Origin: Candidatus Omnitrophota bacterium
GTDB lineage: Bacteria > Omnitrophota > Gorgyraeia > Gygaellales > Profunditerraquicolaceae
Length of the DNA: 64,000 bases
Reading direction: 5' to 3'
NCBI GenBank assembly: GCA_029571225.1
Contig: JAKPTF010000035.1
Coordinates: 12,575 to 76,574, forward strand
The stretch's first letter is position 1. Each line of letters begins with the position of its first letter. Shown in pieces: positions 1-64,000 of this stretch. The position numbers were made by a program, and so were the translations under genes. The notes below the pieces were generated by a model, which was not told where the DNA came from, made no database searches, and saw only the letters and a program-made list of their open reading frames with translations.

Positions 1-180
1 CTGCTTCAGCGCGGTCAAAGCGCCCGCATTCTCGAAGATCGTATTGGCGCCGATGACCAGCGCACCCTGGGTTTTTTGTTCGGCGCGCACCGCATTCACG
101 ACATTGCCGAAATACGTCGAAACCGCCTGGTACACGGCCTGATCCATCTCAAACAACGGCGCGGGCATATTCGTTGCAAC
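1..180 (-). repeat. Shared C-terminal domain, copy 1 (partial, continues beyond window), preceded by KDGG at 181-189
   Basis: ...GRVLKDGGVATNMPAPLFEMDQ...QGALVIGANTIFENAGALTALKQ matches GALVIGANTIFENAGSIAALTQ (PGI-like) and GAVILGANAIMENAGSIAALEK (FBA-PFK-GAPDH). The DNA at 25-65 is also close to 7795-7830. Confidence 0.8.
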
Positions 181-7179: not shown

Positions 7180-7217
7180 TGTACTCCTCCCATGTTAGGA
7201 CGATTTTAAAATATCGG

Positions 7218-10073: not shown

Positions 10074-10120
10074 TATCTCCCCCTTTTTATCGGCTTAGAT
10101 GGCATTACGATATATGCATG

Positions 10121-10153
10121 CCTGCGCGGCAGGCATCATGCCTGCCGCGCAGG
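10121..10153. repeat. GC-rich perfect inverted repeat (16+1+16 nt) in the intergenic gap between the FBA-PFK-GAPDH and PGI-like genes
   Basis: CCTGCGCGGCAGGCAT-C-ATGCCTGCCGCGCAGG. It lies 10 nt downstream of the TAA (10163-10165) on the transcribed strand. No U-tract follows it. Confidence 0.6.
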
Positions 10154-10162
10154 TAATTGATA

Positions 10163-16859: not shown

Positions 16860-16863
16860 GGGC

Positions 16864-16924
16864 AAATAAAAAAGCCACGACTCACTGAATCCTCTTTTCC
16901 GGAGGCATTCAGTCATCCGTGGCC
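16864..16924 (-). terminator. Imperfect long hairpin followed by TTTTTTATTT (candidate intrinsic terminator of the giant gene, or a leader attenuator)
   Basis: Minus strand: GGCCACGGATGACTGAATGCCTCC-ggaaaa-GAGGATTCAGTGAGTCGTGGC-TTTTTTATTT. The stem has about 17 pairs with a few mismatches and one bulge. It ends 4 nt before the ATG at 16859. Confidence 0.45.
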
Positions 16925-16945
16925 ATTCCATACTGTATGTGCTTC

Positions 16946-16965
16946 TTTTGAAAGCGCTTTCAAAA
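16946..16965. promoter_or_regulatory. Perfect 20-nt palindrome TTTTGAAAGCGCTTTCAAAA
   Basis: Read directly from the sequence. It lies between the promoter-like element and the hairpin. It could be an operator or a small stem-loop. Confidence 0.35.
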
Positions 16966-16981
16966 CGCCTTACTATTAAAA

Positions 16982-17010
16982 AAGATACCATAGAACACCA
17001 TTTCTGTCAA
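16982..17010 (-). promoter_or_regulatory. Sigma70-like promoter candidate (TTGACA - 17 nt - TATCTT)
   Basis: The minus strand has TTGACA at 17005-17010, a 17-nt spacer and TATCTT at 16982-16987. It sits in the AT-rich 217-nt gap after the giant gene. Confidence 0.3.
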
Positions 17011-17076
17011 GAAATACTTTTATAAAAGATTGATAATCTATTTACCTTGTTTCCCATGCACAAATTAATATAGCGA

Positions 17077-20000
17077 TTAAATATTTGTCGAGAAACAGCC
17101 GTCTATCCATACAACAAACTCGATCGCTGTTTTTTCAAGGACATTGTTGTTAAACGCTCCCGCAAGAAAGGCTTTGATGCCGCCGTCTTTGTTCTCAGGC
17201 GCATTGTCGTTCTTATTGTCTTTCCCACCCTTATCATATTTCACATAAAATCCTGAAGCAGTTCTCTGAGTCTTCTGCGCATCCGTGCACGCAGCCCGCA
17301 TAGTATCAATAGCCGCGTCTATATTGCCTGCTCCCTGAACCAACGACCGCACGTGATCGGTCTCATACCCGCACCGGCACCAAAGATGCGCAAGCTGTGA
17401 TTTTTGTTCGCAGGTCGCTTTAAGGCCCAGAAGATAACAAATATCCTCTTCGCTGAACACGTAGCTGCCGGTATACTCTGATCGCCGACAGCACAGCTCG
17501 ATCAAAAAACTTGTTGTTTCGGCATCGAGGACAATAAGGCTTGCTTTGCTCATGTTCCTGATCTGAGTCTTATTGAACAACGGTTTATTGCCTCTATAGA
17601 TAAGCGAAAGCAGGAATGCGTTTCGCTCCCGCCGAAGCCAGTACGCGATGCTCTTCAGAGGCCCGGCATTCATTCCTTTGCGAGATTCCATGAATTCGCC
17701 AAGCCTCACATACGGGCTTATATTATCGGGCACCAGGCCTGCTTCCACCAGCGCCGTAACAAGCTTGCCCATGCGCGTATTGCAAAGTTCAGCCAGCCGT
17801 CTGCTGTCCATCCGCAGGTCCTTAAGGAAAAGGAACTCGGGGTCCCCATACTCTCCTGCCGGATTGTTTATCCGGCAACACAAATTGAACCCCTGCTTTC
17901 TCCAGAAACCGGTCAAGCCTGCCAGATTATTCTGCGAAACGAGCACGGACGCAAAATCGCTCCCCATGGCCCTGCATACCGGTTCCATGAATTGTTTATA
18001 CAAAAATGTGCCAATGCCTTTCCCACGCAGGGCCGGGTCGAGCATAAGCTCGATCTGTGCGCGCCGCTGGGTATCTATTTTGGTAAAGTGCATCATTGCC
18101 AGCGGCATCTCCGTTGGTTGCGCGGTTCGGTCTCGCAGGAATACGGAATACGCAAAACCATCCCGTGATGTCACGACTGCCCGGAGCGAAGCGATCCCGG
18201 TCAGCTTTCGCAGCTGTCGTATCGGCAGTTCCGATTCGATGAAGGTCTTGACGGGAATTGCGCCTCCGTCCGAACGGCGCACCGCGTATCCAGCCCCGGA
18301 CCGCCGGATATTGACAGCAGGGTCACGCCGCGGATTGAACACGTAATAATATTCGCTCCTGTCCTCGCAGGGCAGGGACAATTCCCGGCTACGATAATCG
18401 TCGCTGTCAAGCGCCTCCTTTGCGTCTGCGGTAAAGCAGGCCCCTCCTGCAGTGAATACGTACGTACGGCTATCCATTCTGACTTTCTTCGACTCGCTCA
18501 AGGCGCTTTTTCTTACCAGATACTTGAGATAAATCCGCCTCTCCAGAAGCTGTTCGTACAGACACTGTTCCCCGTGCAGAGTCGCATCGGGATAACTTCT
18601 GCAAAAAGCCAATGCCTCCGCATAGATACGGCAGCTGGTGCTCAGGGTAAAACCTGCCTCAGGCGAATAATCGAACAGTATCTGTAATGCGCTGCACGGC
18701 CACCTGAAGAGGTATCGGTCAAGCGGGATCTCGTCGCAGGCCCTGCGCCCTGACGGACAGAACGCAAGGGCAATGTCTTTCCTGCCATGCGCATGTGTAG
18801 CTCCGAATTTGCGCTGCAACAATGTATTGATTTCAGGGAATCCGCGCTCTGACCGGGCAAAGCAGCACGCCCCGTCTGCGCATCTGATCCTGCCTGCCGT
18901 TTCCCGGGAAAAACGAAGTTCTATACCGTGATTTCCGCCGTCTCTGCCTCTTTTCCCCCCACCAGGATCGTCCGGAAGAACCTCAGATTCGGCCTTTGAA
19001 CGGGTATAATGCACCACGACGGCTGCACAGAATGCCGCTGTCAATATCGCGCTCAAAATGAAAACCGTATTGGACGGCAGCGCAATCAATCCCATGTCCT
19101 CAATGCCCGAAAGGAACAAATAAACCAGGAGGCCGGCGGTAATCAGTTTGCTTACCCATCTCAGGCATGTTGAGATCATCGGATTGTGCTGCAGCGTAAG
19201 CTGGCAAAGGGATTTTGATACGCATACGTCCAGCACAATGACCAGTAAGACCACATTGATTATGAAAGCCGCAAAGGTAATCCCCGTGCCGAACCGGCTG
19301 AGCAGCAGCGGCGTTATTCCGAGCAATCCGGGGCCCGCGATCAAAGGAAAAGAAACCGGGATTACGCAGAACCATTTATAGGGAACGGCCTCGAAATATC
19401 TGCACACATGGAGGCGGGGCATGAAGAAATCAAGACAGAATATTCCCAGGACGATGACGCAGGCGATCTTCAATATCCCCAATTGGAACAGGGACAGGGA
19501 AAGCCCGAGCGCCATGAAGGCAATCACAAAAACGATTGATATCGGCATCGACAGCAACAACAACCTCCTGATGCTGCCGCGCGTCAAATTAAGATGCTGG
19601 GCAATCGCACGGAAAACGATCGCGGTTCCGATGATATTGATCGCCATGCCGACTACAAATACCGCCATGGCCAACTGGTAAAGCAGGCCCATCATGCCTC
19701 CGTCCTGCTGCGCCTCAAGTCGCCGGAGCATATCGATCGACCGAGCCTGCGCATAAAGGCCTTTGCCTCTGAGTACCTCCCGGTAAAAAACCAGTATTTC
19801 AATCCACGTCCGGCCGGAAAAGTAAAGTTTCTGGTTGCCGAACCTGACCGGATGGCCGTTATCTATCAGGAAAAGCCCTGTTGATTCTTCAACGACCTTA
19901 ATGACTTCTTCCGGCGAGACCGATAGAGAGACCTCCTTGATGAGCCGGCGGTAGAATAACATCCGTTCCTGCTGGGATACGAGCCGCTTCGACCATGGAG

Positions 20001-23000
20001 CGCGCCTCTTGCGCGTCTCGATACGCGCGAGTATGTTATCGTACTGGCGGATCAGTATTCCGAACAGGACCTGATGAAGAAACGCATGGACGCTTTGATC
20101 CGTACAGGCGAGCTCGCTGTAGAGAGCGCCCGGGGAGGACAGTTTTCTTTCGAAACGCAAGCTTGCGCGCTCGAACCTGCGTTGAGCACGCTCGATCGCA
20201 CGGCTGCTGTTCGCCGGATATACGGACACGATATCAAAACCGACGTGGTTATTCTCGAATACGACGAGCGCGCCGATATCCGGGTTGATGGCCACAAAAC
20301 GGCCGTCATTGATGAAGTAATTCGTATCATGGCTCAAGACCACCTCATACGGCATTGCCTCATACATGCGTAGCAGCTCAAGGACCGGTTTATTGCGGTC
20401 GTACAGCGGGCTGCGGCTCGGCCATTCGTATAAATGGCGGGAAAAATGCCAGCACAGATTTTCAACGCCGGACCATGCGATCCTGCGAGCGCCTCCGTCG
20501 AGATGGTTATTGCCGTTCTTGATGAATTCAATATACGTGGGAAGCGCTTCGACCACATCGTTGTCCCCTTTGACGAGGATCGCGTACATGCCGAGGCTGC
20601 GGGCCGGATGGATATCACTGTCAAGATTATCCCCCACCATAATGGCCTGCGAGCTGTCGATATTAAAATCCCGCAACACAATCCTGAACGCTTCCGGGTG
20701 CGGCTTTTCTTTCTGAGACGGGAAATCGTCCTGCGTGATGATACGGGAAAAATATTTCTTGATCTTAAGGTATTCGAGCGTCTTATATGCCATCGCTTCG
20801 CAGTTGTTCGTCAGAAGCACCAGGGGATAATCCTCTGACAGCCTATGAAGCACACCCTGCAGCTCGGGATTCGGCTGAAGGTACCGGGAAAGATCAATAC
20901 TGGCAGTCAAGTATTCATGATAATCGTGGGCGCTCAATCCGAACATGCGGCATATCCTGCTATGGCTCTTTTCGCTGCCGACGCGCTGTTCGATCTCCGC
21001 GGCGGATAAAAACGGCCTTCGGCACCTGATGAACTCGAGCAGCGCCTGGTCATATTTTTGTGCGAGCTCATCGCTGTCGTAGAGCGTGTTATCGAGATCA
21101 AAGATGATAACCGCGACGCTTCCCGAAACCCGCTGCTGGACAGCCGGCAAAAACGTAGAAAAGAAATAGTACACCAGACCCGAGAGCTGCTTGGGCCCCG
21201 GATGCTGCTGCTGGTAGTAGATCTTGCGCAGCCGCGCAAGATATCGTTTTTCAATGGGGATCCCCGCGTTATCGACAACTACGATGAATTCAGCCAGCTC
21301 CAGAGGATGCGCCTTGAAATATTCATAACTGATGCGGCGGCCGCCCCGTTCCCCTTGATGGGCAAGATGCGCCAGCTCGTGACGGAGGATATCTTCCTGG
21401 ACGACCCGGGGCAGGGTCAGAAAATACGGATGGAAGCAGATGGTATTGGTCTCCCGGACGCTGTGGGCGACCTTGGACCAGCGCAAAGACTCTTGCGCCG
21501 AGATAAGGACGTTGAATTCCGGCGGGCCGCGGATGATGCCGCGTGCCGTATGGACCAGATTGGCGAATTCCTGGAAGCTCCAGAAATAATCATACACGAT
21601 GGCTCCCGGCTTGATGGCATATCTGCCTTTGGAGATTGAAAAGGATAGGCTCGTCGGTATCCTTTTTGCGTATTTCTTTTGGCCTTCCTTTCGGGCGTGC
21701 GCCGGTATGACAAGCGGGTAAAAATGACGCCGATGGCCGTTATTATACATTCTAAAAATCTTCCCGATCAGGATCAGAGAATTCACCGCAAGCCAGACTG
21801 AAATACCGATGCTGATGGCCAGGTCGAAGAACGGCATGCCGGTGACGAAGATGGCGATCCCCGCTGCTATTGCGGCGATAGATGCCGCAAGGTCCCCGAG
21901 AACATGGATGTATGCCCCTTCCATGTTGATATCGGTGCCCGAATGGCCGCAGAGGAACCGGTACCCGACCAGATTCACGATCATGCCGAAGAAAGCGATG
22001 ATGAGAACCTCAGCCCCCCCCACCGGTAGCGGCTTGAAAAACCGGACTAATGCGGATATGATGATATACCCCGATGTTATCCCGAGGATCAGCGCGTTAA
22101 TGCCCGCTGCTGCCAGCTGGAGGAAAGAGTTGCCTTCGTATTTCGGTGCAAGCCCGAACCGGTGCGTGGCCCAATGCGCGACCAATGCGCAGCTCAGCCC
22201 TGAAATATCCGTTATCATATGGCCGGCATCGGCGACAAGCGCCAGGGAATGGAACCAGAGGCCGCCGATGACCTCGATAAGCGCATATCCGGCGGTAATC
22301 GCCAGGACGATCATGAGCACACGTGTCCCGGCGTGATGATGTTCGTGGCCGCCATCCCTGAAACCATTACGATGGTTGACGTTGCCGTTGAACGTCTCGA
22401 CCATCTCCGGGTATTCGGCATAGGCAGCATAGCCCTCGCCGATCACCTTTCTTGTCGCCGCGAATATGACCGCGGAAAATACCAGGGTCTGCGTCATGCC
22501 AATAGCAAACATGAAACCGAATACCAGATAAGCGCCGATAGACATCACAAAACTGCGCAGGAAATCGCGGCGCGCCGTGCTGCGGCGGTAGCCCCGCAGG
22601 ATACGCTGGGCATAATTGAGCGGCCCGCCGACCATGCTCACAAGAATGATATCAAGAATTATATTGACCGCCATGTTCCCGCCAAGCATCAATGCAAGCG
22701 GGTCTGAAAGATACATTTTAGCCGCGACAATGGGTATGCATGACAGGCCGCTCGCGAACAAATCATTGGCGAGCTTCTTACGGCGCACATAACCGTACGC
22801 GCTTATAAGCTTTCGCACGCGCGTGGAAATATCAGCGATCCGGGGACATACAAGCTGATCGCCTACATATCCGCACGCTTTCATATCGACAAGGGCATTG
22901 CGCACGATCACAAGGCTGATCCAGACGCAGGAAAGCACAATACTGATCTGCCCGATGCCCTGTCCGAGCGACATGCCGATAACGGTTGCAAGTATCCCCG

Positions 23001-26000
23001 CAATAACCTTGGCATAGGTCAACGACCTGAACCTATTGTCCTCGAACGGCAGCTTGTTCTCCATGATCGCGTCGCTGATGTCCTGGAACCGCCGGCTGCC
23101 CCCGTCTGCGATGCTGTTGTCAAGCACCAGGTCATACTCGTCATCCGGCACAAAAACCAGGCACCGCGATACGGCGCCCCATCCTCTGCACCGGGAATAG
23201 TGGCGGCGGTCCTCTTCCCGGGCAACAATCTTGACCTTGATATCGAACATGCCCCGGTCAAGGCTGCTGAGCGAGTGGATACCCTCGACGACAACCACCC
23301 TGGCCGGACATTTTGTCGCGCATTCAACGATGTCTGCGGTCAAGGAAGCCCAGTTATGGTGCCCGCAGGTATAATCAAACGATTCTATATACGCATCAGC
23401 TGCAAACACCTTCACCCAAAACCTGTTTGCAAACACAAGACCCGTAAAATACGTTTTGCCTACTCCGCTCGACCCGTCGATGAGAACAAACGCCCTGCCT
23501 TTCTTGCGGCACACGCCATCGATCATAGCAGGAAGCAGCGCCTGCCCTTCCTTGAGCGTGGCGCGGAGCGCTCCTCCGTCATTCCGGGGATACCGGGGGG
23601 AAGAGGCGGGATCTTCCGCCACGGTAGATTCATCCGCCTCTTTTGGCCCCCCAATATGATCCCTGGAATCATAACTCACGAAATGTATTGCTTTGCGTAT
23701 TGCTGCGGCGTAGAGCTTCCAGACATTGCCCGAATGGTTCTTATGATACAGGTATGATAACAGCACGATCCACGGCACTGATGCGCATTGCGTGATCATA
23801 TAAGAATACTGCGGGAACACCAGAAATGCGAAGAATACGACCGGAAGCCAGTACGGCAGGTTGGTCATGAATATGAGCCTGGGATATTTCAAATACCGGT
23901 GCACGCCCTGTGCCGTACCGTCATAATACACGTCGCGCAGGCTCTGGCGCAGCGGATGCCTTTCGACCCAGAACCTGCCCAGGAAGTATCCTGCGCCCAG
24001 GCCGAACCAGGTGCCCGGACCTTGATCAAGAAATGCTTTTATGACAGGGATCGGAAGGCCGGATGCCGGGATGCCGAGCGCTCCGGCGGTATATGCCGTC
24101 GCCAGCGGCAGGACTATCCCATACCACCCTATGCCGAACCAGGCAGCGCTGAACGTAAAACCCAGTATCCCTGCCCTGATGACCCTGCCCGTATCGAGAT
24201 GGCAGTGTTCTTCATCTATGCGGATCTCATAACACTGCGCGAAATAATTTGAGATCGCCGCGCTGATGCACCCGACGATCGCACAGCGTACATAATCAGC
24301 CAGAATATAGCTGCTCACATAGGCATCCACGGAAAGGCCTGTCGGAATCGGAAAGATCAGCATGATCGCTGCTGCAAACACGGTGAAAATGACTGACGTA
24401 AGCGCCAGCTGTATGATAAACTGCCTGACCTGGCCGTTTTCAGCGCCGCCGTCTTTGTTCAGATCACCAAACAGATGCCGCGCGACGCCGAACCATTCGC
24501 GCTCATAGGTGAGGCGCGAACGTTCGATGCCCCGGGCAAGCGCCATCGCCTTCTTTTGTTTCACGCCGAGAAATACCAGTTCTTTCCATGCGCCCTCTCG
24601 CACGCTCGCAACGAACAAATCAGCGCCCTTTTCGTCAATAACCCCTTTGCCGATCTTTTCGAACACGCCGGAACCCAATATCTGATGCTGAATAAAATCT
24701 TCGTTCAGGTACGCATACATATACGCGGCCATGGCCGCGCCGGCTTCCCTGCCGATCTTGCGTATCAATTTACGGGCAGCACCATTGCCCCGCACAGCTT
24801 CTTCAGTCAGCGAACGCAGTGTGAATCCCTGTTTCTTGAGTTTCCTGGTCAGGTTTGGCCCGGAAAACAGGTCTTCAAAATCGCCCCGCAGGTCATTCCC
24901 CGACTCGTCCTTCGGGTGATCCCCGCGCGTTTTGGAACCCAGGAAAATGAACCTGCCGCGGTATCCCTCCGGAATATCGGTAAGCGGCACCACGCTGCGC
25001 AAGACCACATTATGGCCGAGTTCCCGTATTTCGCCATGCTCGCCGGCATATACTTTATTGTCACGAGCTGCAGCGGCATTACTGCCCGTTCCGGATATCC
25101 AGACTGTCCCATGTCCCCAGGGGAACAGGGCACCTTTCGGCGTTAGTTCTCCGTCAACAGCCGCATTGCAGTCATTATCGATATACACGGGCATACTGCG
25201 GCCGAATGCCTTTTCCATCCGCTGCCCGAGCGCCTCCCGGAGCGGATAGTGGTCAAACGGCATGTTCTTTGCGGCAAAAGGCGTTCCGACAACCCCCTTT
25301 TCCTGGTCCAGAGGGCCGGCAAAAGCTATCCCCAAACCAGCGATCCTATCAACGGCAATCCGGTTGTCGCGGACCACCCGTTCGATTTCGCTTACCATGG
25401 CATCAACGCACTCCTCAGGGCTCGCCTGCATAAGGCCCTGTCTGAAATAATCGTTCCACAACAATTCGTCCCCGCGGGCAGCGACCTCATACTGTTTGGT
25501 GATCGCGCCGACAGCAAGCTTGCTTCCGCCCACGCTCGCCGCCATCACGAGCGGCCCGGATTCATCGTGCCGGGCTTTTTCGACAATATATCGTACGGGC
25601 TCAAGGGATTCGTTATACTGGATGACGTTACGGGCAATACCAGCGGGATTGCTGAAGCTTATATAGACGTCGAAATCCTGCGCCGTAGGGATACGATTAA
25701 AATCATCGAACGTCCGTTCCAGATAATTCCAGACCCTCCTTTTTGACAGGGACTGTTTGGTTTCCAGAATATAGCTGTCGATCATTTCATCGTCCGTCAG
25801 GAGCAGCCTGAAATCTGTGATCGCAAGCCTGACCGTATAGCCGTCGCCGTTCGAAACAACCCGTGACCTGTTGCCGGGGCGCCCCTCCAGGCGCCTGACG
25901 ACGCGGTCAACTACTGCAGCCACCGCATCGTCGTTTTCCGCGAAATAGACGATGTTCTTGACACGCTCGAGTCGGCGGTCGTCTTCAAGAGAAAATATGC

Positions 26001-29000
26001 GGTCGTCGGCATGGGCGTCAAGGATCATGCTGAAAACCGAAATATGCTTGCCGAAACCGGCAATCTGTTCATACAGGTCCTTGAAATGCGCGTTGAACTT
26101 GAATTCCATGATGCCGTTGACCGTCGTAGCATCGACTTCCTTTGAACCCTTGGCGGAGATGAACACCCTCTCAAAATCATCGATGTCCCCCAGGTTCGCG
26201 AGGAACGCGATGATGTCCTCGAACTCGAAGCTGAACTTATGAATGCCCGAGGTCTCGCCGAGCATGCCTTTCACCCGGCCATAGCATTTTGTATCATGCC
26301 TGCAGCCGACGTCATGGGTCCCCAGACGGCTGAACCTGGCGAGCGTCGAGCGCACAACATTAACGAGCATGCCCTTGTGGGGGAAACGCGAATACATGAC
26401 ATTACGGTTGCCTTCCTGCATCAGGTCGTCGAGTTTGCTGACAAAAACCCCCATGTCCGCCTTGCGCACGAAACGGTTCCAGTCCGGTATGATCTCGATG
26501 CCGCGGAACAGCTCCTGCATCTGGCAGGACAGGCGCGCATCGGCAGCGCCGGCTTTATTGGCGTAAATCAGGCCGAGCAGAAGGCCGGCGATCCTGCCGT
26601 CTTCGATCCTGATCCGCTTATCGGTAAAGGCCGCGCGCATTTTCCTGAACTGATCATCGAGAGCGGACGCAGCGGGACAGAACGAACGTATGTCTTGGCC
26701 ATAGAGCAGCTTGAATATGCGTTCCATGGCGTCCGTGTTTCCCGTGGCAGGAACCGTAAGATCATTAAGCGCCTTATCAGCTGACGCAAGGGCCTCAGAG
26801 GCCGGATACGAGTATCTGACAATATTGGCAAGTATGGCCTGCCGCTCGTGTCCGGGCAGGCGCAGGAAAAAGTTCAGGTCGCCGTTAATTACCTCCTCGT
26901 TGCAGGAATCTTTTATCAAACATCGGTCGCAATGCAGTTTATGGCGGAGGATGAAGGTAAAGGTTGGTATATCGTGCAGGGCTGATGCGGGCAGATCGAT
27001 GACTCCGGTGACGGCGCAGGTCGTGAATATGCCTTTGTCGCTCGGGGAGGAAACAAGCTGGTAATCAGGAGGGCTCCTGATCGAATACACGTATCCCCAT
27101 ACCTTGTATTTCTTGAGCGTGTCAAGGGCGGCATTGAGGATACGCACGATATCGTCCTTGGTAAAACCCTCGCACTGGCAATTCTCAATGATCACCTGTT
27201 TGCCGATGATCCTGCCGTAGATGCCCGGCGCTGTCGCTGACGGCGCAATCGGGGCTTCGCCGCCGTCTTTGCGGCTGTTCATCCTGTCAAGCACCGACAG
27301 GAGCCTCTTTTGCTCCCGGCTTCTGGCGATCTGCAGGTCTTTTTCATGCAACCCTGCCCAGAAGTCATGATGCAGATGCCCCGCATTCTCGATAATGATC
27401 TGATCGATGCGCCCGCCGATTCCGCCGCGGGCCATTACCTCCAGGACGAATTCGAGGCGGAAGGACTTGCGCAGCGGCAGATTGATATTGTCGATCAGGT
27501 ACGGCACGCAGCCGCGCTCGCCGAATGTTTGGATAAATTCTTTGTAGGGCCACCGGCTGTCTTTGGCCATAACCGCCACGCTTGCGAGCACCCGCTGCGC
27601 AAGCAGGCCGGTAAGGATATCGCGGTAACTCCATCCGAACATCTCCGGATTTGCGGCTTTATGGATCGATTCGATGTATTCGATAAACCTGCTGCCGAAA
27701 CCGTCGGTGTCTTTTGCAAGCTCCTCGATGACCCGGGAATTGAATTGCAGGTTGAACACGCCCATCAGGAACTCAAGATAGAGGTCGAATAACGGCATCT
27801 TTTTTTCCGATGTCAGGAATATGATGCAGCCTGCCAGCCGGTCAACGATGATATGGCGGGCGGCATATTTCTGCCGGGCGTCTGATGGCAGGAGGCGGCG
27901 GTCAAGCACCCACACCTGCATTTCTTCCCTTTGAATCTGACCGCTGTTCAAATGCCTCTTCCACCATTTCGGCTTGACCGATTTTCTGTCAGTGAAAACC
28001 GAGGCGAACGCGAGCATCATGCGGAATGGTTCGCGTTTTTTCTCCAGAATACGGTTATAGATACCGGGGTATCTCTCGAACAGCGCAGCGACCTCTTTCG
28101 GTTTGTGCTGTTCGATGAGATCGCGCATGGCCGGCTCGGAGATGGCAAAGACTGTGCGCGGGATGCCTGATTTTTCCATCTGGCCGAGAAAGATGTCGCG
28201 CGCCTTGGAAACGCCGGAGGCAGTCGTCGTATCGAGGTCTGCCTTCAGGAAATTCCTTCTGATCTCGGCGAGCATCTGATTCAGTTCTTCCGGGTTATAG
28301 AGGTCCTTGCGGTACCGGTTCAGATGCATGGCGCGGATATTGCCCATCGCGTATCCCAGGTCGATCTCGAGGTCGCTCGTGATCCTTGTCGCGCTCACCA
28401 CCGAACCCGTACTCCTGAATTTCTTGCGGTTAAATGGTATAAGAAAGTGGATGTTTTCCGCGACCTTGCGGCGCAGGACCAGCTTCGGAAACAGGTAATC
28501 GATAAAACCGCTGACCACCTGGCTGAAAAGTTTCCTGCTGATCTGGTATGCGCCGGTTTGGCCGAGGATATTGCTGCCGCCGAGCAGGGTACAGCCGATC
28601 GTCGCAATGGTAAAACCGACGTCCTTATACGCTTCCGTGTATTGGGCATCGACGCCGAATCCTTCTTTTTTGCGCGTGTACATGGAATACAGGACTCCGG
28701 CGACGATATTGACAGGCAGCTGGATCAGGACGATGGCGAGTATCTCACCGTATCCGAGGATATTAACGGCAGTCCAGAGCGACGCGATGTTGAGGACGGA
28801 AAAGATGATGAGGCCGTAAAGCCCGTACTGGAGGAATTGCGCGAATTTCTGCCAGTCGATATCGGCCCAGTCCCATTTCTTGACCTTTCCGCCGTACCAG
28901 TGTATCTCATCCGTTATCACCGAGCGCAGGAATACGCTGACATGCCACAATATCCAGGAAATAACGGCCCACTCGTATCCGATAGGGATGCCGATGGTGA

Positions 29001-53000: not shown

Positions 53001-56000
53001 GCGCATAGACAAATTTCTGCTGTAGTGATAACGTCTCCCAATCAGGCCGCAAGCGCCGGTGATACAGCTGGGTAATAGCCTCTTTCAACCGGCCGGGACC
53101 GCATGCTTCCCTGGCGATAACAAGAAATTCCAGATTCTCCTGGCGGCCGCCGTCGAATGCCCCGGACATGCGATAGTGCTGATCTATTGCGGCATACTCT
53201 TCTTTTACCCTGGCCATCCATTGATCATGAGCTTCCCTGCCGTTTTGCCCGGAGAATTCCGGTATTGTTTTCTGCGCTGTCGTTGATATCAGGTCAAACA
53301 GTTCCGTGTCGGATCCGGTCCCGGTGCCGAATGTATGCTGCAGGTCGCGTATAAGACATATCCCCATGCCGATGCGCTCGAGAACCGTCTGATCGTACAG
53401 ATTCTGATATGACAGAGAAGAAATATTCCTGGCCAGATGAGCCGGCGACAGGAAAAGCCATTCTAACATAAGCGATTTGATAATGGTCGCCGGAACGGAT
53501 AATGAGATCCCACCCAGCACCAGAGACACGGCAACGGCGGAGAGCCAGGTAATAGGCGAGACGATCACCACCCATATCAGGATGTAGCCGATGTTAAGGG
53601 ATGCCTTTGCGCACCATGAAAGCACGGTATCAATGGTGTTTATCGTCTTGCGGTGCCTGCCAAGGGCGAGCGGCCATCCTGCCGCATCTTTACTGCGTGT
53701 TTTCCATCCGATCAGATGAGCTGTCATACGGCAGGAATCAGTTTCCAGGGACGGATATAAACCGTTGAACACCGCCGCTGCCAGATTGACATGCGTGAAT
53801 ATTATCAGCGCAAGCCAGGGAGACGCGATGTTCGGGATCAATACCGAAAAGGGCGCGATCCCCAGGGAATACAGGACGATAAGGCCGATCACTGCCAGGA
53901 TGAGGTTGGATAAAGGCCCTGCCGCTGCTACGTAGAAGCCGGACCGGCTGGAGCTAGTGATCGCCGTTGCGGGATCCTCCTCGACATATGATGAGACAGC
54001 GGACAGCCTGATGCGTCTTATGGGCCTCTTGAATCGGATCATGACGAGCGCATGCGCGGCCTCATGGATGGCTGATATGGAATATACTCCGAGAGTCAAG
54101 GCGCCCAGCACCGGGTTCAAGACCCACAGGACGATTATTGCAGGAACAAGAAGAACCAGATTAAAGTGCAGTTCGATCGGGATCGATGTGGGCAGGTGAT
54201 AGACGCTTGAGAACCCTCTTCCGGTCCAGCCGGATTTTCGCCGCTCCGTTTCAGATTCTCCGCCGTCGCGCAGGATGACGTGCGGCAGGGTCTGATAATC
54301 GGGCACGACGGTGCGGATGTTCACCGCGCGCTTGAGCTTCTCCCAATCGACCTTATTGAGCTGATGCTCTGCGGCGATATTCTTCAACCAACCCAGCTTC
54401 TCCTCCAAGGATAAGCCGTTCCATTCAGGCCCGCTTGTCTTCTCAAACACCTTGACCGCCGCTCTGCGCAAAGGCGCATGGGGTCCGTAGTTTTCCTGTA
54501 TCTGTGTCCTGAAATACAAATAGGTCCAATCTGCGGAATCACGAGGTATCGTCAGCCCGATTTCTGATATAAGATCCTTCAGTTTAGTCTCCTGAACGTC
54601 AAGTTCATAATTATGCCCGAGCGGACCGTTAATAAAATAACCCAATTCCCACTGTTTATATGCCCGCACCACAGCTTCTTTCAGGGCCCAGAACTTAATG
54701 GCATGCAGATTCCGAGCAATCTCCTCTTTGGTGGCGGCGCGGGTCGCCGCGGGCACAGAATCGCATAATATCCCGTCGACTGCGATCCCCCGGCTGCGAA
54801 GGCCGCTGCACATCGAGACGATCATATCAAGGCTTTGCTGAAAATCATCCTGCGCGAGATTGCGGATCATTTCCAGAAATTCAGTCTGCGTGGTAAGATG
54901 AAGAAACACCTCGTGGGCATGCCGCATACCTTCCGACCCCTCTCCCAGGTACGGCACAAGCTGACGCTCAAATCCATACAGGGCGCGCAACCTATCCCTG
55001 GCGGTTTCGGCACTATCTGCCAGGCGGAATACTTCGCTCTGGAACTTTAACTCTGCCTGTAGCGATTCCGTAAGCCTTGCTCTTCTTCTATCGTTCCAGA
55101 CAGACAACGCGCAAAACCGCACGGCCTTGTCGCCCTGCAGCCGGGAGAGCCAATCCTGGATCAGAAACGTCAAATACCTGTCCGGAAGCTGGCTGAAGGC
55201 TTTTGCCGATCTCTCCAGACTATTATCAGATACATCGGAGCTGTCAGATACTATGATCTTCTTCATCCGGGGATGATCAACGCAATGGTGCACGGCCAAC
55301 GCAATATCATACACATGACCCGTGAGGAATAAAGCGCCCATAACAGGCATGATATAAAGAATATTCAGGGAAAGCGTGAAACCCACGCCAGCAGCTATAA
55401 AGTTTAAAATTACAGTCATGAAGAAAACTATCCATCCAAGATCAGCTTCTGGTGACGTATGATATGTCCGCGCCTCCAGTGTTTTCCAGAAAGGGACCTG
55501 CGGCAGAGCCTTGCATAAGCGATTAGAGATTTCTTCATCTGCCACAAGCAGCATATTGACTACGAAGTTTAAAATAGATATCATGAATATTGTCGCGCAC
55601 AAAATGAGGCCCAGAGCGGACAACATAAAAATTCCATCGATAGTCACGGCCTGCGTATAGAACTGCCATGCCAGACCTGTATCGCCTCCTGACAACGCAG
55701 CCCAGGCCTGCGCAAAATATGAAAGAGATATCTGATCCTGGGGGGTTAAGAAACCGGCGGCGAAAACGCTGCATGCAGTCCACAGCGACCCGCCATCCGA
55801 ACGCAGGCTCGCCAGTCCGTCCTGGTCTGTTAATTTCTCCCGAATAAGACCGTTGTTGAACTGCGGGTTGACCCAGACGATCCTTCCATCAGGCGTAATG
55901 TCGCAGAGCGCGGGGCACACAATATCGATGCCGAAGGTCCTGTGCCACTCATCCTGTATATCGCGCGGCAATATCAAACGGTATATGTCGGCCACCGCAC

Positions 56001-59000
56001 GACCCTGCTCGACGTGGGTATATGCGGCCCTGTCCGGCCAATTCGCCGGGTCAAGAACCGTTTGCCAATCCGCCTCTGTAATCTCTCCCTTCTGCAGGCC
56101 CAACACCACCCTTAAACTGCTCAAGAGTTTTTGTCTTTCCTTCGAAAGGTCGCCGCCGTCATGCTCTGCCGCTAAACTAGTCTCCTTGGCACTGATTATT
56201 TCAAGCGCATCCCCGGCCATTTGAAGCGTTGCTTTCATACCCCGTATCTGCTCATCGGAAAAATCGCCGCTGGCGCGCACACTTTCAGCGATCTCATCGC
56301 GCATCTCTGCGGCGCGCGCGCGGCGGTCCGCAGGCTTTTCCTCCGCAACCAGATGGTGAATACCCTCGGCGATCATAACCAGGTTCCGGTCGTTCATGAA
56401 GTCTGCCGGGCGCAACTGGCCGGCAATATCCTTGAGCTGCTGTACCGACGTTATGGCATAATCGTGGTTAACCAGGCCAAAGGCTGAAAACATCAAAACG
56501 AATACACCTATAATTCCCAGGCTGAAGGGCACATAAAACGGAAGAATGCCGATTACGGACAATACCGCCAGGGCAATGCAACTGACCGCGACAATCCGGC
56601 TGTAGACTACGGTCACCCTGTTCGCATAAACGACATTTGTTTTCATCGCAAGCAATGACCTGATCACGCGGCCCGAATCAAGCGGGTACATCGGCATGAA
56701 AAGATTGAATATGCCCAGAATCCAATTGATCAGGCCAAGCGACACCAGCCAGGCGAGCGGGCTTGCCATATCTATGACCGGCCAGGCGAACAGGTTGAAC
56801 GAAGCACCCAGGAGCGCTGCGGGAACGAACAGCGACGCTGCTATGCCGAAACTTGCAAGGGGGCCGGCAATGGAAACCAGAAATTCCTGTTTCGGATCCC
56901 TGAACTTCATGTCCCGGATCGCCGTAGTGCCTCCCAGGATATGAAGCGTAATATGATCCGTTTCAAAGCCGTATCGCCGGGCAGCGCGGATATGCGAAAA
57001 TTCATGCGCCAGCACTGACAGAAGAACGGCAATATAGAACAACAGAAGTTCCCATCCGGTTAACGCAAACAGGGCAATCGGAATAACCAGCGTGATGTGC
57101 AGCCGCAGCGGGATCCTGGTCGGTATCTGTAACGATGGAAATATCCCGTCGCCGACCAATTCCCAGGATTTGCTCTGCGCTGCGCCGCCGTCCCGGCTCG
57201 CATCGATCCGTGTCGACGGACAAACCACCCTGGCTCTGAACCATAGAGGAACATGCCGGATCATATCCTGCCTGATCGAAACAGCTTTTATAAAGCTGTC
57301 CTGCGCCATGTCTTCAAAGCCAAGGGCAAGCGACATTGCCCCCAGGTTTACATGTGATATATGGCACGCCGGATTGAGCTCGATTGCCTTCTGCATCTCT
57401 ATAATGGCTTGCTGAAAATAACCCTGCCGGTAATAGAGTAGCATGCTGCGGTTATAGAGAACCGACGCGTAATCGGGATTCTGCTCAAGCGCCTTCCGAT
57501 ATGCCGAAAGTGCGGCGTCATAGTGGCCGAACTCCGCATATACCGCTCCCAGGTTATTATAAATACAACAGCTCACGCCCGGCTTATCCATTATCTGGAA
57601 CCCGAAGTAAAACAGATTCAATAATTCTTTCTTTGTGATGCGGTCGACATCCAGCACGCCTGCCTGATATTGCTGCTCGAGTTCGATAACACGCTCGCCG
57701 GATATTTTATAGTTTGGCTTGAGTACCCAATATACGCCTGCTTTGCGGTAATATTTCCTAACATTGACGACCCGCAACGTGTTTAATATGAAATCGATCA
57801 CCAGCAATCTTTTCTTGTCAAGCATGAGCCCGACAAAACAATGTCCGATACGGCTGCAACCCCGGACGTTGAATCCCAACATTGCCAGGATGATATACGT
57901 CAATTGCGCGGTTACAATACATCGCGCGAGGCATGCTTTCATAGCAGCGCTTTCGCTGCCGGAACGGGAATCGGCATCAATGACATCGAATATATTTTCG
58001 TGGTTCAGGCTGTTGACTAACAGCATGCTTATCTGCGGCGGATCAACCTCTTCAAAAATCCGGTTCCTGTCGAACAGGTCCCACACCACAAGCATTAATT
58101 GGCCGAGATGCTTTCTGCCTTCGGGGGCATTACGCAGGCACTGATGCCATTGCGCTGATTGTTCTGTAAGGGTTTGCCATGTATCTTCAGGAAGGACCTG
58201 TTTGATCTGAGCGTTCAACGCCGGAACGGCATTTTCAGGATACCCGATGCTCACGAGAATACCGGATAATTTTTCATCATACGCTCCGCCGTCCAGGCTG
58301 AGATACAACTCCAGAGCCTTGTTCCTGACCAGCGCAGTCATTTCCGCTTTCATATCGGCATCGTCAGGGTGCGCCATGCAGCGGCGGAAGGCGCTATCAA
58401 AAACCCGGGCCGTGAATTCAAATCCTGCGTTATAGTAAAATTTTATGTAGCCGAACATCCCTGCCGGATCGCGGTCGATCACCGGCGACGGATCATGCGC
58501 AAATCCCCTGACCGCGCCCTCATGAAGGGAATATATTGCACGGAGCCGTTCGATGAATATCTCGCGCGTCCAACCCTGATGCCGGTATTCCGGGAACAGG
58601 AAGAACCCGGTATTAAAGAACCACTTGGAATGCCAGCCAAATCCGACAATCCCATCCCTGTTGGCCAGGATCTCGAGCCTTTCATGGCGGCCGCCGATCG
58701 TGACGTTGAACCCGCGGGGTCTTTCCGAACAGGACCAGTGTATCCCGCGGCCGAGGATCGTCGTGTAGAACGGATCGTTCTCGAACATCATGATACCTTC
58801 TGTCTCAAGACAGAAATACGTCCTGCCGTAACGGGCGCTGTGCTGACTTATTTTTGCATCAAGCATTGCTACCTGGTCAGAGCTATCGGCCCAATCGGAA
58901 TCGAAAAGCTCGATCGGCTCTTTGATCCTGCTGACGATTTCTTCGCGTCCTGTCCCGCCGTCGCGCAGCGCTCTCTCGATCATCTTGATGTCGCTTGAAA

Positions 59001-62000
59001 GCCTGTCCATGGCAAAATCGGTATACCTGCAGGCGATCATGCGTTTATTGACCGGCAGTTCTCCCCGCGCCACGCGCGTCCGGATGCCCTTCATGGTAGA
59101 GGTAAACCCGCTGATGAAGCTATCCCTTGCCGCAGGCCGGATATCCCGGGCCGCGATATTCGACAGGAGGGATTGCAGCATTCCGGCCTGGGTGCTCAGA
59201 TCGTCTTTGTCCAGAGTGAACGCGCTGACAAAATCTATATTGTACATTTCAATAACCGTATCGAGGTCAAGATCAACCCGGATATTGCTCGGGTTCCTGT
59301 CACCGAGGCCGATCAAATAAGCGGCAAATGCGGTCTTGCCCAGCAAATATGCCAGTTGCGGGACAAAACGACGGTTCGCGAGCAACGCGTCATTGAAAAG
59401 GTAGATATCCTCAAGGCTCGAATTGCCCACGTTGGTATAAACATAGTAATGGCTCCGGTAATCGACGAGCATCTGCGTCGGCAGGGTAAACGCCTCCAGG
59501 ACTATCGAGGCATACGGCTCATAGCTGTACGAAAAGGCCTCTTTCAGGATGAGCGTTATATGCTTCGAACCGAACCGGACTTCCGCGCGGTACGTCCGGA
59601 GGTCATCAAACGAGGTCTGGATTACGCCTTTTATTAATTTCACGGATCCGATGCCGTCGCAGCCGAGGCGGCAGAGAAGCTGCCTGATAAACTGTTCTTC
59701 CTGGCCGCCGTCGCACGATTGTTTTGCGGAAGCCGCATCCTCTTTCCCATCGGCAGCAAGATACTTTTCTATGACGTGGCCGGGGATCAGCCTGTTCAAT
59801 CGTTTGACAGCAGATTCCTTTTCGTCAGGGCCAAGCACATTGATCACGTGCAGATTTCCCGGCGACAGGACAATCGCCTTCATGAAATTTTCCATCGCCT
59901 CCTGTTTATTTTCCGAATACAGATTAACGAGCCCTAAGCCAAGATAACTGCTGTAGTCTGCGGGATTGAGTTCCCGGGCAAAAGAAAACTCTTCCTCGGC
60001 ATTCTGGTAATCCCCTCTCTCAAGGTAATTGAATGCGGCGCCGATGTGCGCAACGACATAGTCCGGTTTAAGTTTAAGGGCCTTAAGATAATGCGCCAGC
60101 GCCGCATCCTTATCGTTCAGCCGGTCATACGTCATCGCCGCTTTCTTGTACATGACCGCCATAAGGCCTGATGCGTCGGTAATATATATATTCGAGTAAT
60201 ATAACGGGAACATCTGGGCATCTTTGAGCGTGTACGCAGGCTGATTTTTCCTGTCGGACCTTTCTTTCAGCCGGAGCAATGCCGCAGGCTCAAGCGGCCA
60301 GTTCCATGACAGATATTTTCCCTCGGCGTGGTAGGTATCCTGCAGCGGCACTGCCTTAATAATGCCGGTGAACAGGTCGACAAAAATGTGCTCGCCTGCC
60401 CAGGGGACAACCGCGAACACGGGGCCGGAGCCGACGGCAATCCTTGTCTCATAACCAAGCATCGATAACAGCAGATACATAAAAGCAGTCTTGTTGGCGC
60501 ACGTAAAAAACGAGTCATAGATCCTGTTTTTCTCTTCTTGCGCGAGGGGCGAGGCAAAAAGGGCGTCGAAAATATGCTGTATCGGCAGCGAGTGCACCAG
60601 ATATTCGTGGATTAACCAGACAGACCTGATATAAACCTTGTCATGCGCAAACCCGACTTCAGGGAGTTCGTCGTGCGTTGTTTCAAATACGATCTCTCGC
60701 GTCTTTCCGTCCCGGACGCTCTCGTCAAATATTTCCCTGAAGGTCTTTTCCATGATGAGAAGCGTGTCCCGGCTGAATTGCGCGCGGAGCTCTTCGATGA
60801 AAGCGGGCATGATCTCCTTTTCGCAGGACAACCGGCGCAGGATTTCAATCAGGTCCCCGTCATCGGCTATATGCCCGCGGTTGGGAAGCAGGAGCGCCTG
60901 CTCCGCCTTGAGCATGGCCTCTTTTTCAGCTCGCGATTTCCTTTCTATCTCAAGGTACATGGAAAGATACGGGATATCAAGGAACGTCGGGCAGACCACG
61001 ACATCGACCGCATCCGTATTTGCAAAGCCTTTCTTGAGGCCGCGGTAATAATTCATGATGCAATCGCCTTTTTCGAACATCTTCAGATTAAAGATGACGA
61101 ACGGTTTCTTGGCCTTCTTTTCCGCAAACGCCGCTGCCTGCAAGACAATACCCGCAGCGCTTTCAACCGGCATGGCGAATCGGGCGACAAATACGCCGTC
61201 GATGTCTGGTTGCCCTAAATAATCCGCGGCATTGTCCGCATTGACGTACCTGCCGTACATAAGATAGATCTTTCGCGCAATGCGCGGCCCGTACCGTTTG
61301 TTCCGGGCGAGCCACGTCCGCAGTGTCCGGCAGACCGCCTGGGCCTCGGCAGGATCTATTGCCTTCTGCTGCGACTCCTGCTGCTGCTTTACCCACAGCG
61401 GCAGATAAATGACAATGACCTTCTGGGCCTGTTTCCTGCCGATGCCCTGCAGGGCGGTGCTTAACTGGTTGATCAAAACCTCATTCGTGACCCCGCGTTT
61501 TCGTTCATCGAGCGTATCAGACACGAAAATGGCCGGTATCAGGCCGTGCGCCAGCGCAGCCTTGACCTTCTTATTGACGAGTTCATACGATTCCACGATC
61601 TCGACAACGCCGTGCGTCCGTTCCGGATGCCCGACCATGACAAAGGCGACCTGCTCGCGTAAAAGCATGGAGGGCGAAACCTCTCCCGTATACGGCCCCG
61701 CGTCCTTGTAGAACATGTTCTGGGCGCCCATGAATATACCGCCGTCGCGGTCGGTATCGGGGGCGCATTTTTCACGGTCGGACAGCTCGGTCATATACCC
61801 CTGCGCCGCCAGGAATTCGGCTTCTTCGAACCATGTCAACTTCGCATTGCGCATTTGTTCCATGACAATGCGGCGGTACAGCGATCCGGGATCGAGTACG
61901 ATGGTCACCAGATAACTCCACGGAAGCCGCTCGATGCGCGTTCCGTTCCTGATGGTCCTGCCGGAAAGCGGCACCGGCAGTTCCTTGCACATGATGCCGG

Positions 62001-64000: not shown

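Follow-up and report, generated by a model that had tools for sequence, protein, structure and literature searches.

We examined a 64,000-nucleotide stretch of a Candidatus Omnitrophota bacterium genome (contig JAKPTF010000035.1, positions 12,575 to 76,574; hereafter the window), which is dominated by one giant open reading frame (ORF) on the minus strand. It was found that this ORF is punctuated by the tripeptide Asp-Gly-Gly (DGG), often preceded by Lys or Arg ([K/R]DGG), and that the motif is enriched, conserved at the protein level, located at the boundaries of protein modules, and kept across paralogues, genes and species. From this pattern we infer cleavage, a scissile bond and a protease: we give roughly even chances to the reading that the giant ORF encodes a polyprotein precursor cut at [K/R]DGG, with a C39 peptidase as the favoured enzyme. 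A giant gene as such is no surprise in this phylum; what is new is the regular DGG punctuation.

The DGG motif and the reading frame that carries it

DGG was observed 37 times in the giant ORF against 4.2 expected, which makes it the most enriched tripeptide (8.9x); the second and third most enriched, RDG and KDG, are the same motif shifted by one residue. Position -1 to the DGG is Lys or Arg at 19 of the 37 sites (4.5 expected) and never Asp or Glu, and no conservation was detected at the other flanking positions across the 37 sites. It was noted that no site lies inside a Pfam envelope, with envelopes covering 26% of the chain (P ~1e-5). Instead, sites fall 10-54 amino acids (aa) ahead of the CDF, MarC-like, M50 and GNAT domains and 14-24 aa behind the CoaE, HEAT and HAD domains. 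As in polyproteins of the viral type, a short motif recurs at the boundaries of independently folding units, here at 37 sites. An earlier note on this DNA, made from the sequence alone, had spoken in passing of "DGG-delimited" modules, and both the enrichment and the placement relative to domains back that boundary position.

The clearest view of the boundary comes from seven paralogous modules, helical and membrane-anchored, here called family X (M10, M13, M15, M18, M19, M21 and M22 in the list below), whose mutual identity is 20-35%. All seven copies end exactly at DGG, with pairwise alignments reaching the last residue; only 11 columns are invariant across the family, and DGG makes up three of them. 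In an AlphaFold2 model of M13 (predicted local distance difference test, pLDDT, 75), the DGG lies within a disordered 16-aa tail after the last helix.

We also considered whether DGG could be the incidental reading of a signal in the nucleic acid, for instance a scar left by recombination at cassette junctions, a GGAGG acting as internal ribosome-binding site, or a site of mRNA processing. The commonest of the 13 different 9-mers encoding the motif, GACGGCGGC, accounts for 12 of the 37 sites, and GGAGG occurs within nine sites, as such a feature might leave behind. However, the in-frame neighbours one mismatch away from GACGGCGGC are almost purely synonymous (17 synonymous and 2 non-synonymous, neutral 7:20), and the exact 9-mer is absent from the other frames and from the other strand. 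GGA is not enriched as the first Gly codon of the motif (9/37 compared with a background of 18%), the GAC bias at the motif equals the general bias for Asp preceding Gly, no start codon follows the motif at a fixed spacing, the motif is kept in orthologues whose DNA has diverged, and Rfam gave no matches. A Shine-Dalgarno sequence, a recombination scar and codon bias as causes of DGG were ruled out by the synonymous variation and the background codon use, and a nucleic-acid origin is left with very little probability. On the evidence of codon usage, selection on DGG was shown to act at the protein level and not at the DNA level. A strong codon-pair effect was noted across the whole ORF, with a GAC:GAT ratio of 54:11 for Asp before Gly outside the motif and of 413:491 for all Asp.

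Six-frame translation showed a minus-strand frame that runs through 15,640 codons (window positions 63999 to 17080) before it meets a stop, the TAA at 17077-17079; the ORF listing gives 17077..63996 (minus strand, 15,639 aa) with GTG as its start. The earlier note's description of an uninterrupted ORF of about 46.9 kb with a sole stop at 17077-17079 is accurate, and so is its expectation of a gene larger than the window. The NCBI protein HOU36597.1 is identical to aa 1-248 of the giant (100% identity) and adds 638 aa upstream of the window edge, with the frame open and no start reached. The gene therefore has at least 16,278 codons, of which the window carries the 3' 46.9 kb. A locus search with this upstream fragment returned no match among genome contigs or metagenome contigs.

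The possibility that separate genes had been chimerically joined, by assembly or by gene calling, was weighed against the reading frame itself. Public short-read assemblies of the organism are broken into 2-4 kb contigs, which leaves room for such an error. However, at 54% GC a run of 15,640 codons without a stop has no chance of arising at random, and GC by codon position (GC1 ~0.57, GC2 ~0.39, GC3 ~0.65) is uniform across all sixteen 3-kb slices of the ORF, as would be expected if it is genuinely coding from end to end. In public data, ten fragments that were assembled independently match the ORF at 99.8-100% identity; together they account for 53% of it, in frame, and bridge 19 of its 37 module junctions. 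The genes downstream of the giant are identical in ENA, Logan and JGI contigs, and the same organism occurs in ENA ERZ773284, SRA SRR5007359 and JGI Ga0116184. With half of the gene spanned by independent fragments, a chimera is discounted. Misassembly is the least probable of the explanations considered, and this explanation and the nucleic-acid ones are essentially excluded. Window GC falls to 0.475 at 16001-18000, around the 85 bp of AT-rich sequence that part the giant stop from the ORF after it, and is 0.49-0.57 elsewhere.

Modules and protein families of the chain

We defined a module as the piece between successive DGG sites, so that 37 sites give 38 pieces, with a median of 341 aa that is close to the size of an ordinary bacterial protein. 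Pfam scans of the giant protein were run on overlapping chunks and on single modules, and searches of unannotated modules against Pfam, NCBIfam, PHROGs and PDB sequences yielded no assignment. Window coordinates, strand and content are given below, with TM-like denoting transmembrane-like segments.

Giant ORF, 17077..63999, minus: 15,640 sense codons plus TAA; 5' end beyond the window
M01, 63403..63999, minus, aa 1-199: ends QDGG; no family match; begins in the upstream fragment after a DGG at HOU36597.1 aa 598
M02, 63001..63402, minus, aa 200-333: ends HDGG; one TM-like segment; no family match
M03, 61738..63000, minus, aa 334-754: ends RDGG; DUF1152 at aa 362-562
M04, 59704..61737, minus, aa 755-1432: ends CDGG; permuted TIM (aa 755-957 = TpiA 59-251; aa 964-1016 = TpiA 2-54), then TPR
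M05, 58954..59703, minus, aa 1433-1682: ends RDGG; weak PI3_PI4_kinase (E=0.0027)
M06, 58285..58953, minus, aa 1683-1905: ends LDGG; no family match
M07, 57184..58284, minus, aa 1906-2272: ends RDGG; TPR repeats, paralogous to the TPR part of M04
M08, 56152..57183, minus, aa 2273-2616: ends HDGG; Peptidase_M50 with HEFSH; ~6 TM-like segments
M09, 55789..56151, minus, aa 2617-2737: ends SDGG; no family match
M10, 54259..55788, minus, aa 2738-3247: ends RDGG; family X, N-terminal TM segments and helical domain
M11, 53146..54258, minus, aa 3248-3618: ends FDGG; second Peptidase_M50 with HEAAH; ~7 TM-like segments
M12, 52951..53145, minus, aa 3619-3683: ends MDGG; 65-aa spacer matching the C-terminal tail of family X
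M13, 51616..52950, minus, aa 3684-4128: ends KDGG; family X; AlphaFold2 model an all-alpha solenoid
M14, 44626..51615, minus, aa 4129-6458: ends KDGG; six AAA_5 plus lids, canonical Walker A in three; no internal DGG in 2,330 aa
M15, 43285..44625, minus, aa 6459-6905: ends ADGG; family X
M16, 42667..43284, minus, aa 6906-7111: ends KDGG; no family match
M17, 40288..42666, minus, aa 7112-7904: ends KDGG; VWA/MIDAS (DESGS); best PDB sequence match the midasin MIDAS
M18, 38926..40287, minus, aa 7905-8358: ends KDGG; family X
M19, 37564..38925, minus, aa 8359-8812: ends KDGG; family X
M20, 35962..37563, minus, aa 8813-9346: ends FDGG; no family match
M21, 34660..35961, minus, aa 9347-9780: ends RDGG; family X
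M22, 33190..34659, minus, aa 9781-10270: ends QDGG; family X
M23, 32176..33189, minus, aa 10271-10608: ends KDGG; CoaE (dephospho-CoA kinase) at aa 10406-10588
M24, 31333..32175, minus, aa 10609-10889: ends RDGG; no family match
M25, 30562..31332, minus, aa 10890-11146: ends RDGG; no family match
M26, 29740..30561, minus, aa 11147-11420: ends QDGG; HEAT repeats
M27, 29122..29739, minus, aa 11421-11626: ends QDGG; no family match
M28, 27259..29121, minus, aa 11627-12247: ends KDGG; ~4 TM-like segments; no significant family match
M29, 24445..27258, minus, aa 12248-13185: ends KDGG; ROK domain at aa 12823-13097, SVGGS replacing DxGGT
M30, 23572..24444, minus, aa 13186-13476: ends NDGG; ~4 TM-like segments; no family match
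M31, 23098..23571, minus, aa 13477-13634: ends ADGG; Walker A GSSGVGKT; weak P-loop match
M32, 22348..23097, minus, aa 13635-13884: ends RDGG; ~5 TM-like segments; no family match
M33, 20491..22347, minus, aa 13885-14503: ends LDGG; CDF (Cation_efflux) fused to HAD (DLDNT), no DGG between
M34, 19696..20490, minus, aa 14504-14768: ends QDGG; no family match
M35, 18934..19695, minus, aa 14769-15022: ends RDGG; begins MMGLLY; six TM-like segments; weak MarC (E=0.047)
M36, 18262..18933, minus, aa 15023-15246: ends SDGG; no family match
M37, 17179..18261, minus, aa 15247-15607: ends KDGG; GNAT acetyltransferase (E=3e-4)
M38, 17080..17178, minus, aa 15608-15640: 33-aa C-terminal tail past the last DGG

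The chain runs in the order DUF1152, TIM, TPR, two M50, six AAA_5, VWA/MIDAS, CoaE, HEAT, ROK, CDF-HAD and GNAT. Strong matches were obtained for TIM (1e-41), CoaE (8.5e-24), HAD (5e-22), Cation_efflux (CDF, 5e-19), ROK (1e-11), Peptidase_M50 twice (2e-19 and 9.5e-8, with HExxH present in both), the six AAA_5 domains with midasin lids, and VWA (2e-8, with the midasin MIDAS domain 6qt8 as top PDB sequence match), and likewise for TPR, HEAT and DUF1152. The earlier note had named most of these families correctly; its PI3/4K and MarC-like calls correspond to weak matches, its P-loop kinase is visible just as a Walker A motif with a weak P-loop match, and a single GNAT (3e-4) was found where it had counted several. 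At least 14 distinct families were recovered in the chunk- and module-level searches, the most repeated being family X (7 copies, unannotated) and AAA_5 (6 copies), in agreement with its picture of a mosaic of unrelated, normally separate families and not of one repeated domain. The dozens of hydrophobic segments that it had described were also seen, with about 60 TM-like segments clustered in 14 modules in a simple Kyte-Doolittle hydropathy scan. As it had stated, repeat and synthase domains are missing: Pfam gave no Ig, cadherin, RTX, condensation, KS or AT family in the 15,640 aa, and Tandem Repeats Finder detected no tandem repeats in the giant ORF.

Several modules are divergent in their motifs. 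Those of M50 (HExxH), HAD and MIDAS and three Walker A sites are intact, whereas the P-loop Gly of CoaE is replaced by Ala and ROK lacks the Asp of DxGGT. The TIM domain (window 60952-61737, minus strand) does not follow the linear (beta/alpha)8 order with Lys12, His95 and Glu165: it is circularly permuted, with TpiA 59-251 preceding TpiA 2-54, and it retains the catalytic Lys12 and His95 while Glu165 is replaced by Leu (YLPLWV compared with YEPVWAIGTG). Some modules are probably not the housekeeping enzymes that they resemble, judging from these substitutions. The term "concatenated proteome" used previously is fair for the architecture and overstates the content, given the permuted Glu165-less TIM and the ROK without its DxGGT Asp.

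M14 and M17 together hold the parts of a midasin-like machine, with six AAA_5, AAA_lid_7, AAA_lid_5, MDN1_4th and a VWA with DESGS. The six-AAA ring shares 28-30% identity with eukaryotic midasins and 36-41% with other Omnitrophota proteins. It was noted that the machine is split (window 40288-51615, minus strand), the ring and the MIDAS/VWA being parted by M15 of family X and by M16, a 206-aa module with no match. Stand-alone Omnitrophota homologues carry ring and VWA within one protein of 3 thousand amino acids (kaa), without DGG.

The motif in neighbouring genes and in relatives

The motif extends beyond the giant gene into the multi-enzyme ORFs downstream of it. All four begin with a segment that, on visual inspection, resembles a signal peptide in its basic n-region, its stretch of about 20 hydrophobic residues and its small residues, followed by a conserved G[DN]xNLRP and then by [K/R]DGG at residue 46-79; no NCBIfam sorting-signal model matches these leaders. 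Two of the four, the aldolase-PFK-GAPDH and PPDK ORFs, repeat KDGG just ahead of a C-terminal domain. This domain of about 230 aa is common to three of the ORFs at 44-66% identity, always ends FEDTLNKI, and has no Pfam match; its AlphaFold2 model (pLDDT 54) was too poor for a fold search. It may be a docking or assembly domain. Signal-peptide-like N-termini, as these appear to be, are odd on ATP- and NAD-dependent cytosolic enzymes. The features of this region are as follows.

15330..16991, minus: orphan 553-aa ORF directly downstream of the giant; N-terminal hydrophobic segment; no DGG
10163..15313, minus: 1,716-aa fusion ORF; leader ending KDGG (15128-15136), fructose-bisphosphate aldolase II, PFK, GAPDH_C, KDGG (10937-10945), shared C-terminal domain (10166-10864)
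7218..10073, minus: 951-aa ORF; leader with GNNLRP ending KDGG (9864-9872), PGI-like region, shared C-terminal domain (7221-7910)
1..7179, minus, 3' end outside the window: PPDK ORF, 2,573 aa in full; leader with GDSNLRP and two DGG (7036-7044, 6952-6960); KDGG (181-189) before the shared C-terminal domain
7221-7910 and 10166-10864, minus, and 13875-14570 on the contig continuing downstream: copies of the shared C-terminal domain, 44-66% identity

The fourth multi-enzyme ORF lies beyond the window on the same strand and joins TIM, Peptidase_M54, PGK and enolase. Glycolysis is encoded directly downstream of the giant as a run of very large fusion ORFs (window 1-15313 and contigs beyond). The TIM of the fourth ORF, the second at this locus, keeps AYEPRW, starts with GAQ right after the leader and contains a long insert. 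The G[DN]xNLRP leaders, which occupy window positions 9864-10073, 6952-7179 and 15128-15313 on the minus strand, were also seen in related loci. The orphan 553-aa ORF separates the giant from the glycolytic fusions, overlaps the beginning of the ORF that follows it, and had no match in Pfam, NCBIfam, PHROGs or PDB.

Relatives of the glycolytic ORFs were retrieved with the shared C-terminal domain as query. In a contig from activated sludge, gene order is preserved at 63% identity and DGG stands at the corresponding positions, the leader of a third relative (48% identity) ends in RDGG, and a distant relative (30%) keeps the leader and a DALRTP motif without DGG. On contig UPTA01000104 of a related species, the same PGI/PPDK/TIM-M54-PGK-enolase synteny was noted at positions 61720-82406 of 86,568, with about 61 kb upstream of the syntenic block, where by position and length an orthologue of the giant could fit.

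A family-X profile searched against 1.84 billion representatives found almost nothing beyond this gene. It did pick up MCG2708144.1, a partial giant of 6,788 aa from another Omnitrophota metagenome-assembled genome, in which DGG is again the top tripeptide (19 compared with 1.8 expected), with Lys or Arg at -1 in 26% of sites; these sites are conserved in a 69%-identical orthologue. The N-terminus of MCG2708144.1 consists of Met, a TM anchor and then Peptidase_C39 (E=3e-8). The same C39 head is conserved across 57 loci of Omnitrophota, its Cys and His being invariant. At aa 2485-2500, inside a DGG-bounded module, it carries a RadC/JAB-like HNHP...SxxD (Pfam RadC E=0.17), possibly an alternative Gly-Gly peptidase on the basis of this motif; a motif scan found no JAB motif in the window.

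Proposed processing, alternative readings and known systems

In the mechanism that we propose, the giant ORF, with its string of about 40 modules of protein size, would yield a single precursor that is threaded into the membrane via its many hydrophobic segments, and endoproteolysis at the [K/R]DGG sites would release the individual proteins, as with viral polyproteins. The same enzyme would cut the [K/R]DGG that follows the leaders of the glycolytic fusion genes and precedes their shared C-terminal domain. The scissile bond would lie after Gly-Gly, by analogy with C39, clan-CE and deubiquitinase-type enzymes. More tentatively, the protease would be a Gly-Gly-specific C39 cysteine peptidase, whose domain would here lie upstream of the window. 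C39 peptidases (PF03412) cut after Gly-Gly, and the C39 domain, as the conserved N-terminal head of Omnitrophota giants, is the most likely protease; its link with DGG is circumstantial. The earlier note had suspected that a chain of this kind would need processing, and the DGG punctuation points to it.

Several observations weigh against such a precursor or against C39 as its enzyme. No cleavage product has been observed, so that the proposal is sequence inference throughout. Canonical double-glycine leaders have a hydrophobic -4/-7/-12/-15 pattern that the DGG sites do not show, with Lys or Arg at -4 in 19 of 37 sites, and a cut after Gly-Gly would leave about 30% of the new N-termini (Arg, Lys, Leu) destabilising under the classical bacterial N-end rule. 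The motif is missing at some enzyme boundaries, with CDF-HAD and aldolase-PFK-GAPDH remaining fused. Searches with a C39 profile (hmmsearch --max and hhalign) found no C39 or other Gly-Gly peptidase in the 38 modules, in the neighbouring ORFs or in the upstream 638 aa. Another 35 Omnitrophota giants with a C39 head show, over their first 1.5-3.7 kaa, 34 DGG against 54 expected, in a survey biased to N-terminal regions, where the DGG-rich clade is itself DGG-poor (first 2-3 kaa). The presence of C39 therefore does not predict DGG, and we do not claim a phylum-wide code. Eight Omnitrophota midasin-like homologues are also without DGG, and no enrichment was detected in 119 homologues overall. The motif is a clade-restricted feature in the sequences compared.

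A less probable reading, which we nevertheless take seriously, is that the chain stays uncut as one giant membrane-anchored multi-enzyme scaffold, with [K/R]DGG serving without proteolysis, for example as a helix-breaking hinge or as a short motif to which an insertion, docking or modifying factor binds. It fits with the lack of a protease in the window, with the enzymes that stay fused without DGG, and with the HEAT, TPR and seven helical solenoid modules, which suit a scaffold. The position of DGG in a flexible tail of the AlphaFold2 model is also compatible, and published hypotheses treat the giants as intact membrane-anchored or extracellular assemblies. However, linkers are normally variable, whereas here three residues are invariant across paralogues at 20-35% identity and across species; an invariant DGG where flexible linkers normally vary points to specific recognition. 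The motif also follows the N-terminal leaders of ordinary-sized genes, where a hinge would have no obvious role, and the scaffold would have to hold several complete polytopic proteins (CDF, two M50, MarC-like) with their own topologies in one chain.

It is unlikely, though well above the nucleic-acid and artefact explanations, that the chain is processed at the motif by an enzyme other than C39 and at a bond other than that after Gly-Gly. The cut would then follow the Lys or Arg at -1 (trypsin-, gingipain- or metacaspase-like) or the Asp (caspase-like, with small P1' and P2'), and the protease could possibly be one encoded elsewhere, an M50 in the gene or the M54 in the next operon gene. The frequent Lys or Arg at -1, never acidic, would suit such enzymes, as would the misfit of the sites with the canonical double-glycine leader pattern and the existence of C39-headed giants without DGG. 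Peptidase_M50 occurs twice in the ORF, Peptidase_M54 occurs in the downstream fusion ORF, and MCG2708144.1 has its RadC/JAB-like motif. However, the basic residue is conserved at only about half of the sites here and at 26% of those in MCG2708144.1, whereas the Asp and both Gly are invariant. M50 enzymes are intramembrane proteases, and the DGG sites lie outside hydrophobic segments; the JAB match is not significant.

Taken at its broadest, the favoured reading of processing at DGG would mean that, in one Omnitrophota clade, much of the proteome is produced in the form of cellular polyproteins, including membrane transporters, a midasin-like machine and the neighbouring glycolysis. Signal-like leaders and TM segments would serve for their export or insertion, and a peptidase dedicated to Gly-Gly would cut them at the invariant [K/R]DGG; we hold this to be slightly less probable than not. 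To our knowledge, such a gene-expression strategy is otherwise known from viruses alone. If cleavage occurs, a polyprotein strategy would operate in a cellular organism, gene counts and metabolic reconstructions for Omnitrophota would change, and the motif would be the first concrete cleavage code for bacterial giant proteins. Published work on such proteins asks whether they act as a single chain or as cut pieces and states that a cleavage motif is not known; with a motif this short and invariant, and tied to the boundaries, the question can be put to a direct test. The giants can also be split in silico at DGG into modules for structure prediction, and if there is no cleavage, the motif still marks module limits in otherwise unannotatable megaproteins.

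The gene type is already known, since multi-enzyme giant ORFs have been published for Omnitrophota. The fragments at 99.8-100% identity are annotated as 'Candidatus Omnitrophota bacterium' (HOU36597.1, HQJ16173.1), and the giant falls among the very long proteins of the phylum (at least 10 kaa), since its ORF, from an Omnitrophota genome, runs unbroken for more than 10,000 codons. Public catalogues list 916 and 5,761 Omnitrophota proteins of such length. This is in line with what the earlier note had said of ORFs of several 10 kaa with MoxR/VWA content in that phylum. ORFs above 20 kb occur in most classes of Omnitrophota (Seymour et al. 2023). The 'Archaeovorins' combine HEAT, TPR, TIM, PGI, aldolase, PPDK, many TM helices and an N-terminal C39, and their cleavage by C39 or S8 domains has been speculated upon, with the cleavage points stated as unknown (West-Roberts et al. 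2023, bioRxiv 10.1101/2023.11.21.568195). Giants of the 'multi-enzyme metabolic cluster' class carry GNAT, HAD, ROK and HEAT, and the four hypotheses offered for them omit processing (Nielsen & Lui 2026, bioRxiv 10.64898/2026.06.07.730766). Our giant shares with these proteins its phylum, a length above 10 kaa, many TM segments, the tiling of one chain by many unrelated Pfam families (HEAT, TPR, TIM, ROK, HAD, GNAT), and the PGI, aldolase and PPDK domains, which are here in adjoining genes. It agrees with the metabolic-cluster class in that none of its many families dominates by copy number, and with Archaeovorins in its HEAT/TPR, peptidases (two M50), glycolytic-type domains (TIM) and numerous TM helices (about 60 segments). 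In contrast to Archaeovorins, which consistently carry glycosyltransferase, methyltransferase, glycosyl hydrolase and NUDIX domains and mostly SecA_DEAD, none of these was found at E<=0.01 in the available 15,640 aa; the unseen N-terminal part could carry them. The [K/R]DGG at every module boundary and in the neighbouring glycolytic genes sets the present giant apart: no DGG or other junction motif was found in the published accounts consulted, and a literature search pairing Omnitrophota with double-glycine, C39 or polyprotein turned up none either.

Among systems outside the phylum, the repeat adhesins, RTX proteins and megaproteins of nonribosomal peptide and polyketide synthesis have defining repeats or domains that were absent here by Pfam and Tandem Repeats Finder. 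Midasin/Rea1 and bacterial MoxR-VWA systems compare with M14 and M17 alone, in the six tandem AAA_5, the midasin lids and the MIDAS-type VWA (DxSxS), whereas here M15 and M16 stand between the ring and the MIDAS, and both are parts of an ORF of much greater length. MARTX toxins are multi-effector chains freed by an internal cysteine protease domain (CPD), which cuts at Leu-X. The giant likewise holds unrelated functional domains in one polypeptide, with site-specific processing between them here proposed; unlike MARTX it has no RTX repeats and no CPD (C80), its motif is DGG and not Leu-X, and its content is metabolic and membrane-related and not that of known toxins. The double-glycine leaders processed by the C39 domains of PCAT ABC transporters (PF03412) also have an invariant Gly-Gly directly before the presumed cut, and a C39 with conserved Cys and His heads Omnitrophota giants, one of them DGG-rich. 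However, the sites here are internal and number dozens per chain, the leaders are 46-79 aa long and signal-peptide-like, the hydrophobic -4/-7/-12/-15 pattern is absent, the Asp at -3 is invariant, and the Omnitrophota C39 domain is not fused to an ABC transporter.

Viral polyproteins cut at Gly-Gly include African swine fever virus pp220/pp62, processed by pS273R, the coronavirus PLpro substrates (LXGG) and those of the adenovirus protease. Shared with these are one ORF for many unrelated proteins, a short Gly-Gly motif that recurs at boundaries, and small spacer peptides between some sites (here 65 aa, 33 aa and 28 aa). The giant differs in being a cellular bacterial gene ten times longer and known from sequence alone, in encoding polytopic membrane proteins and housekeeping-type enzymes, and in that no protease was found in the window. 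The likeness to MARTX and to double-glycine processing is looser, the defining features of both being missing, and as a proposed mechanism the giant most resembles, by analogy, the viral polyproteins cut at Gly-Gly.

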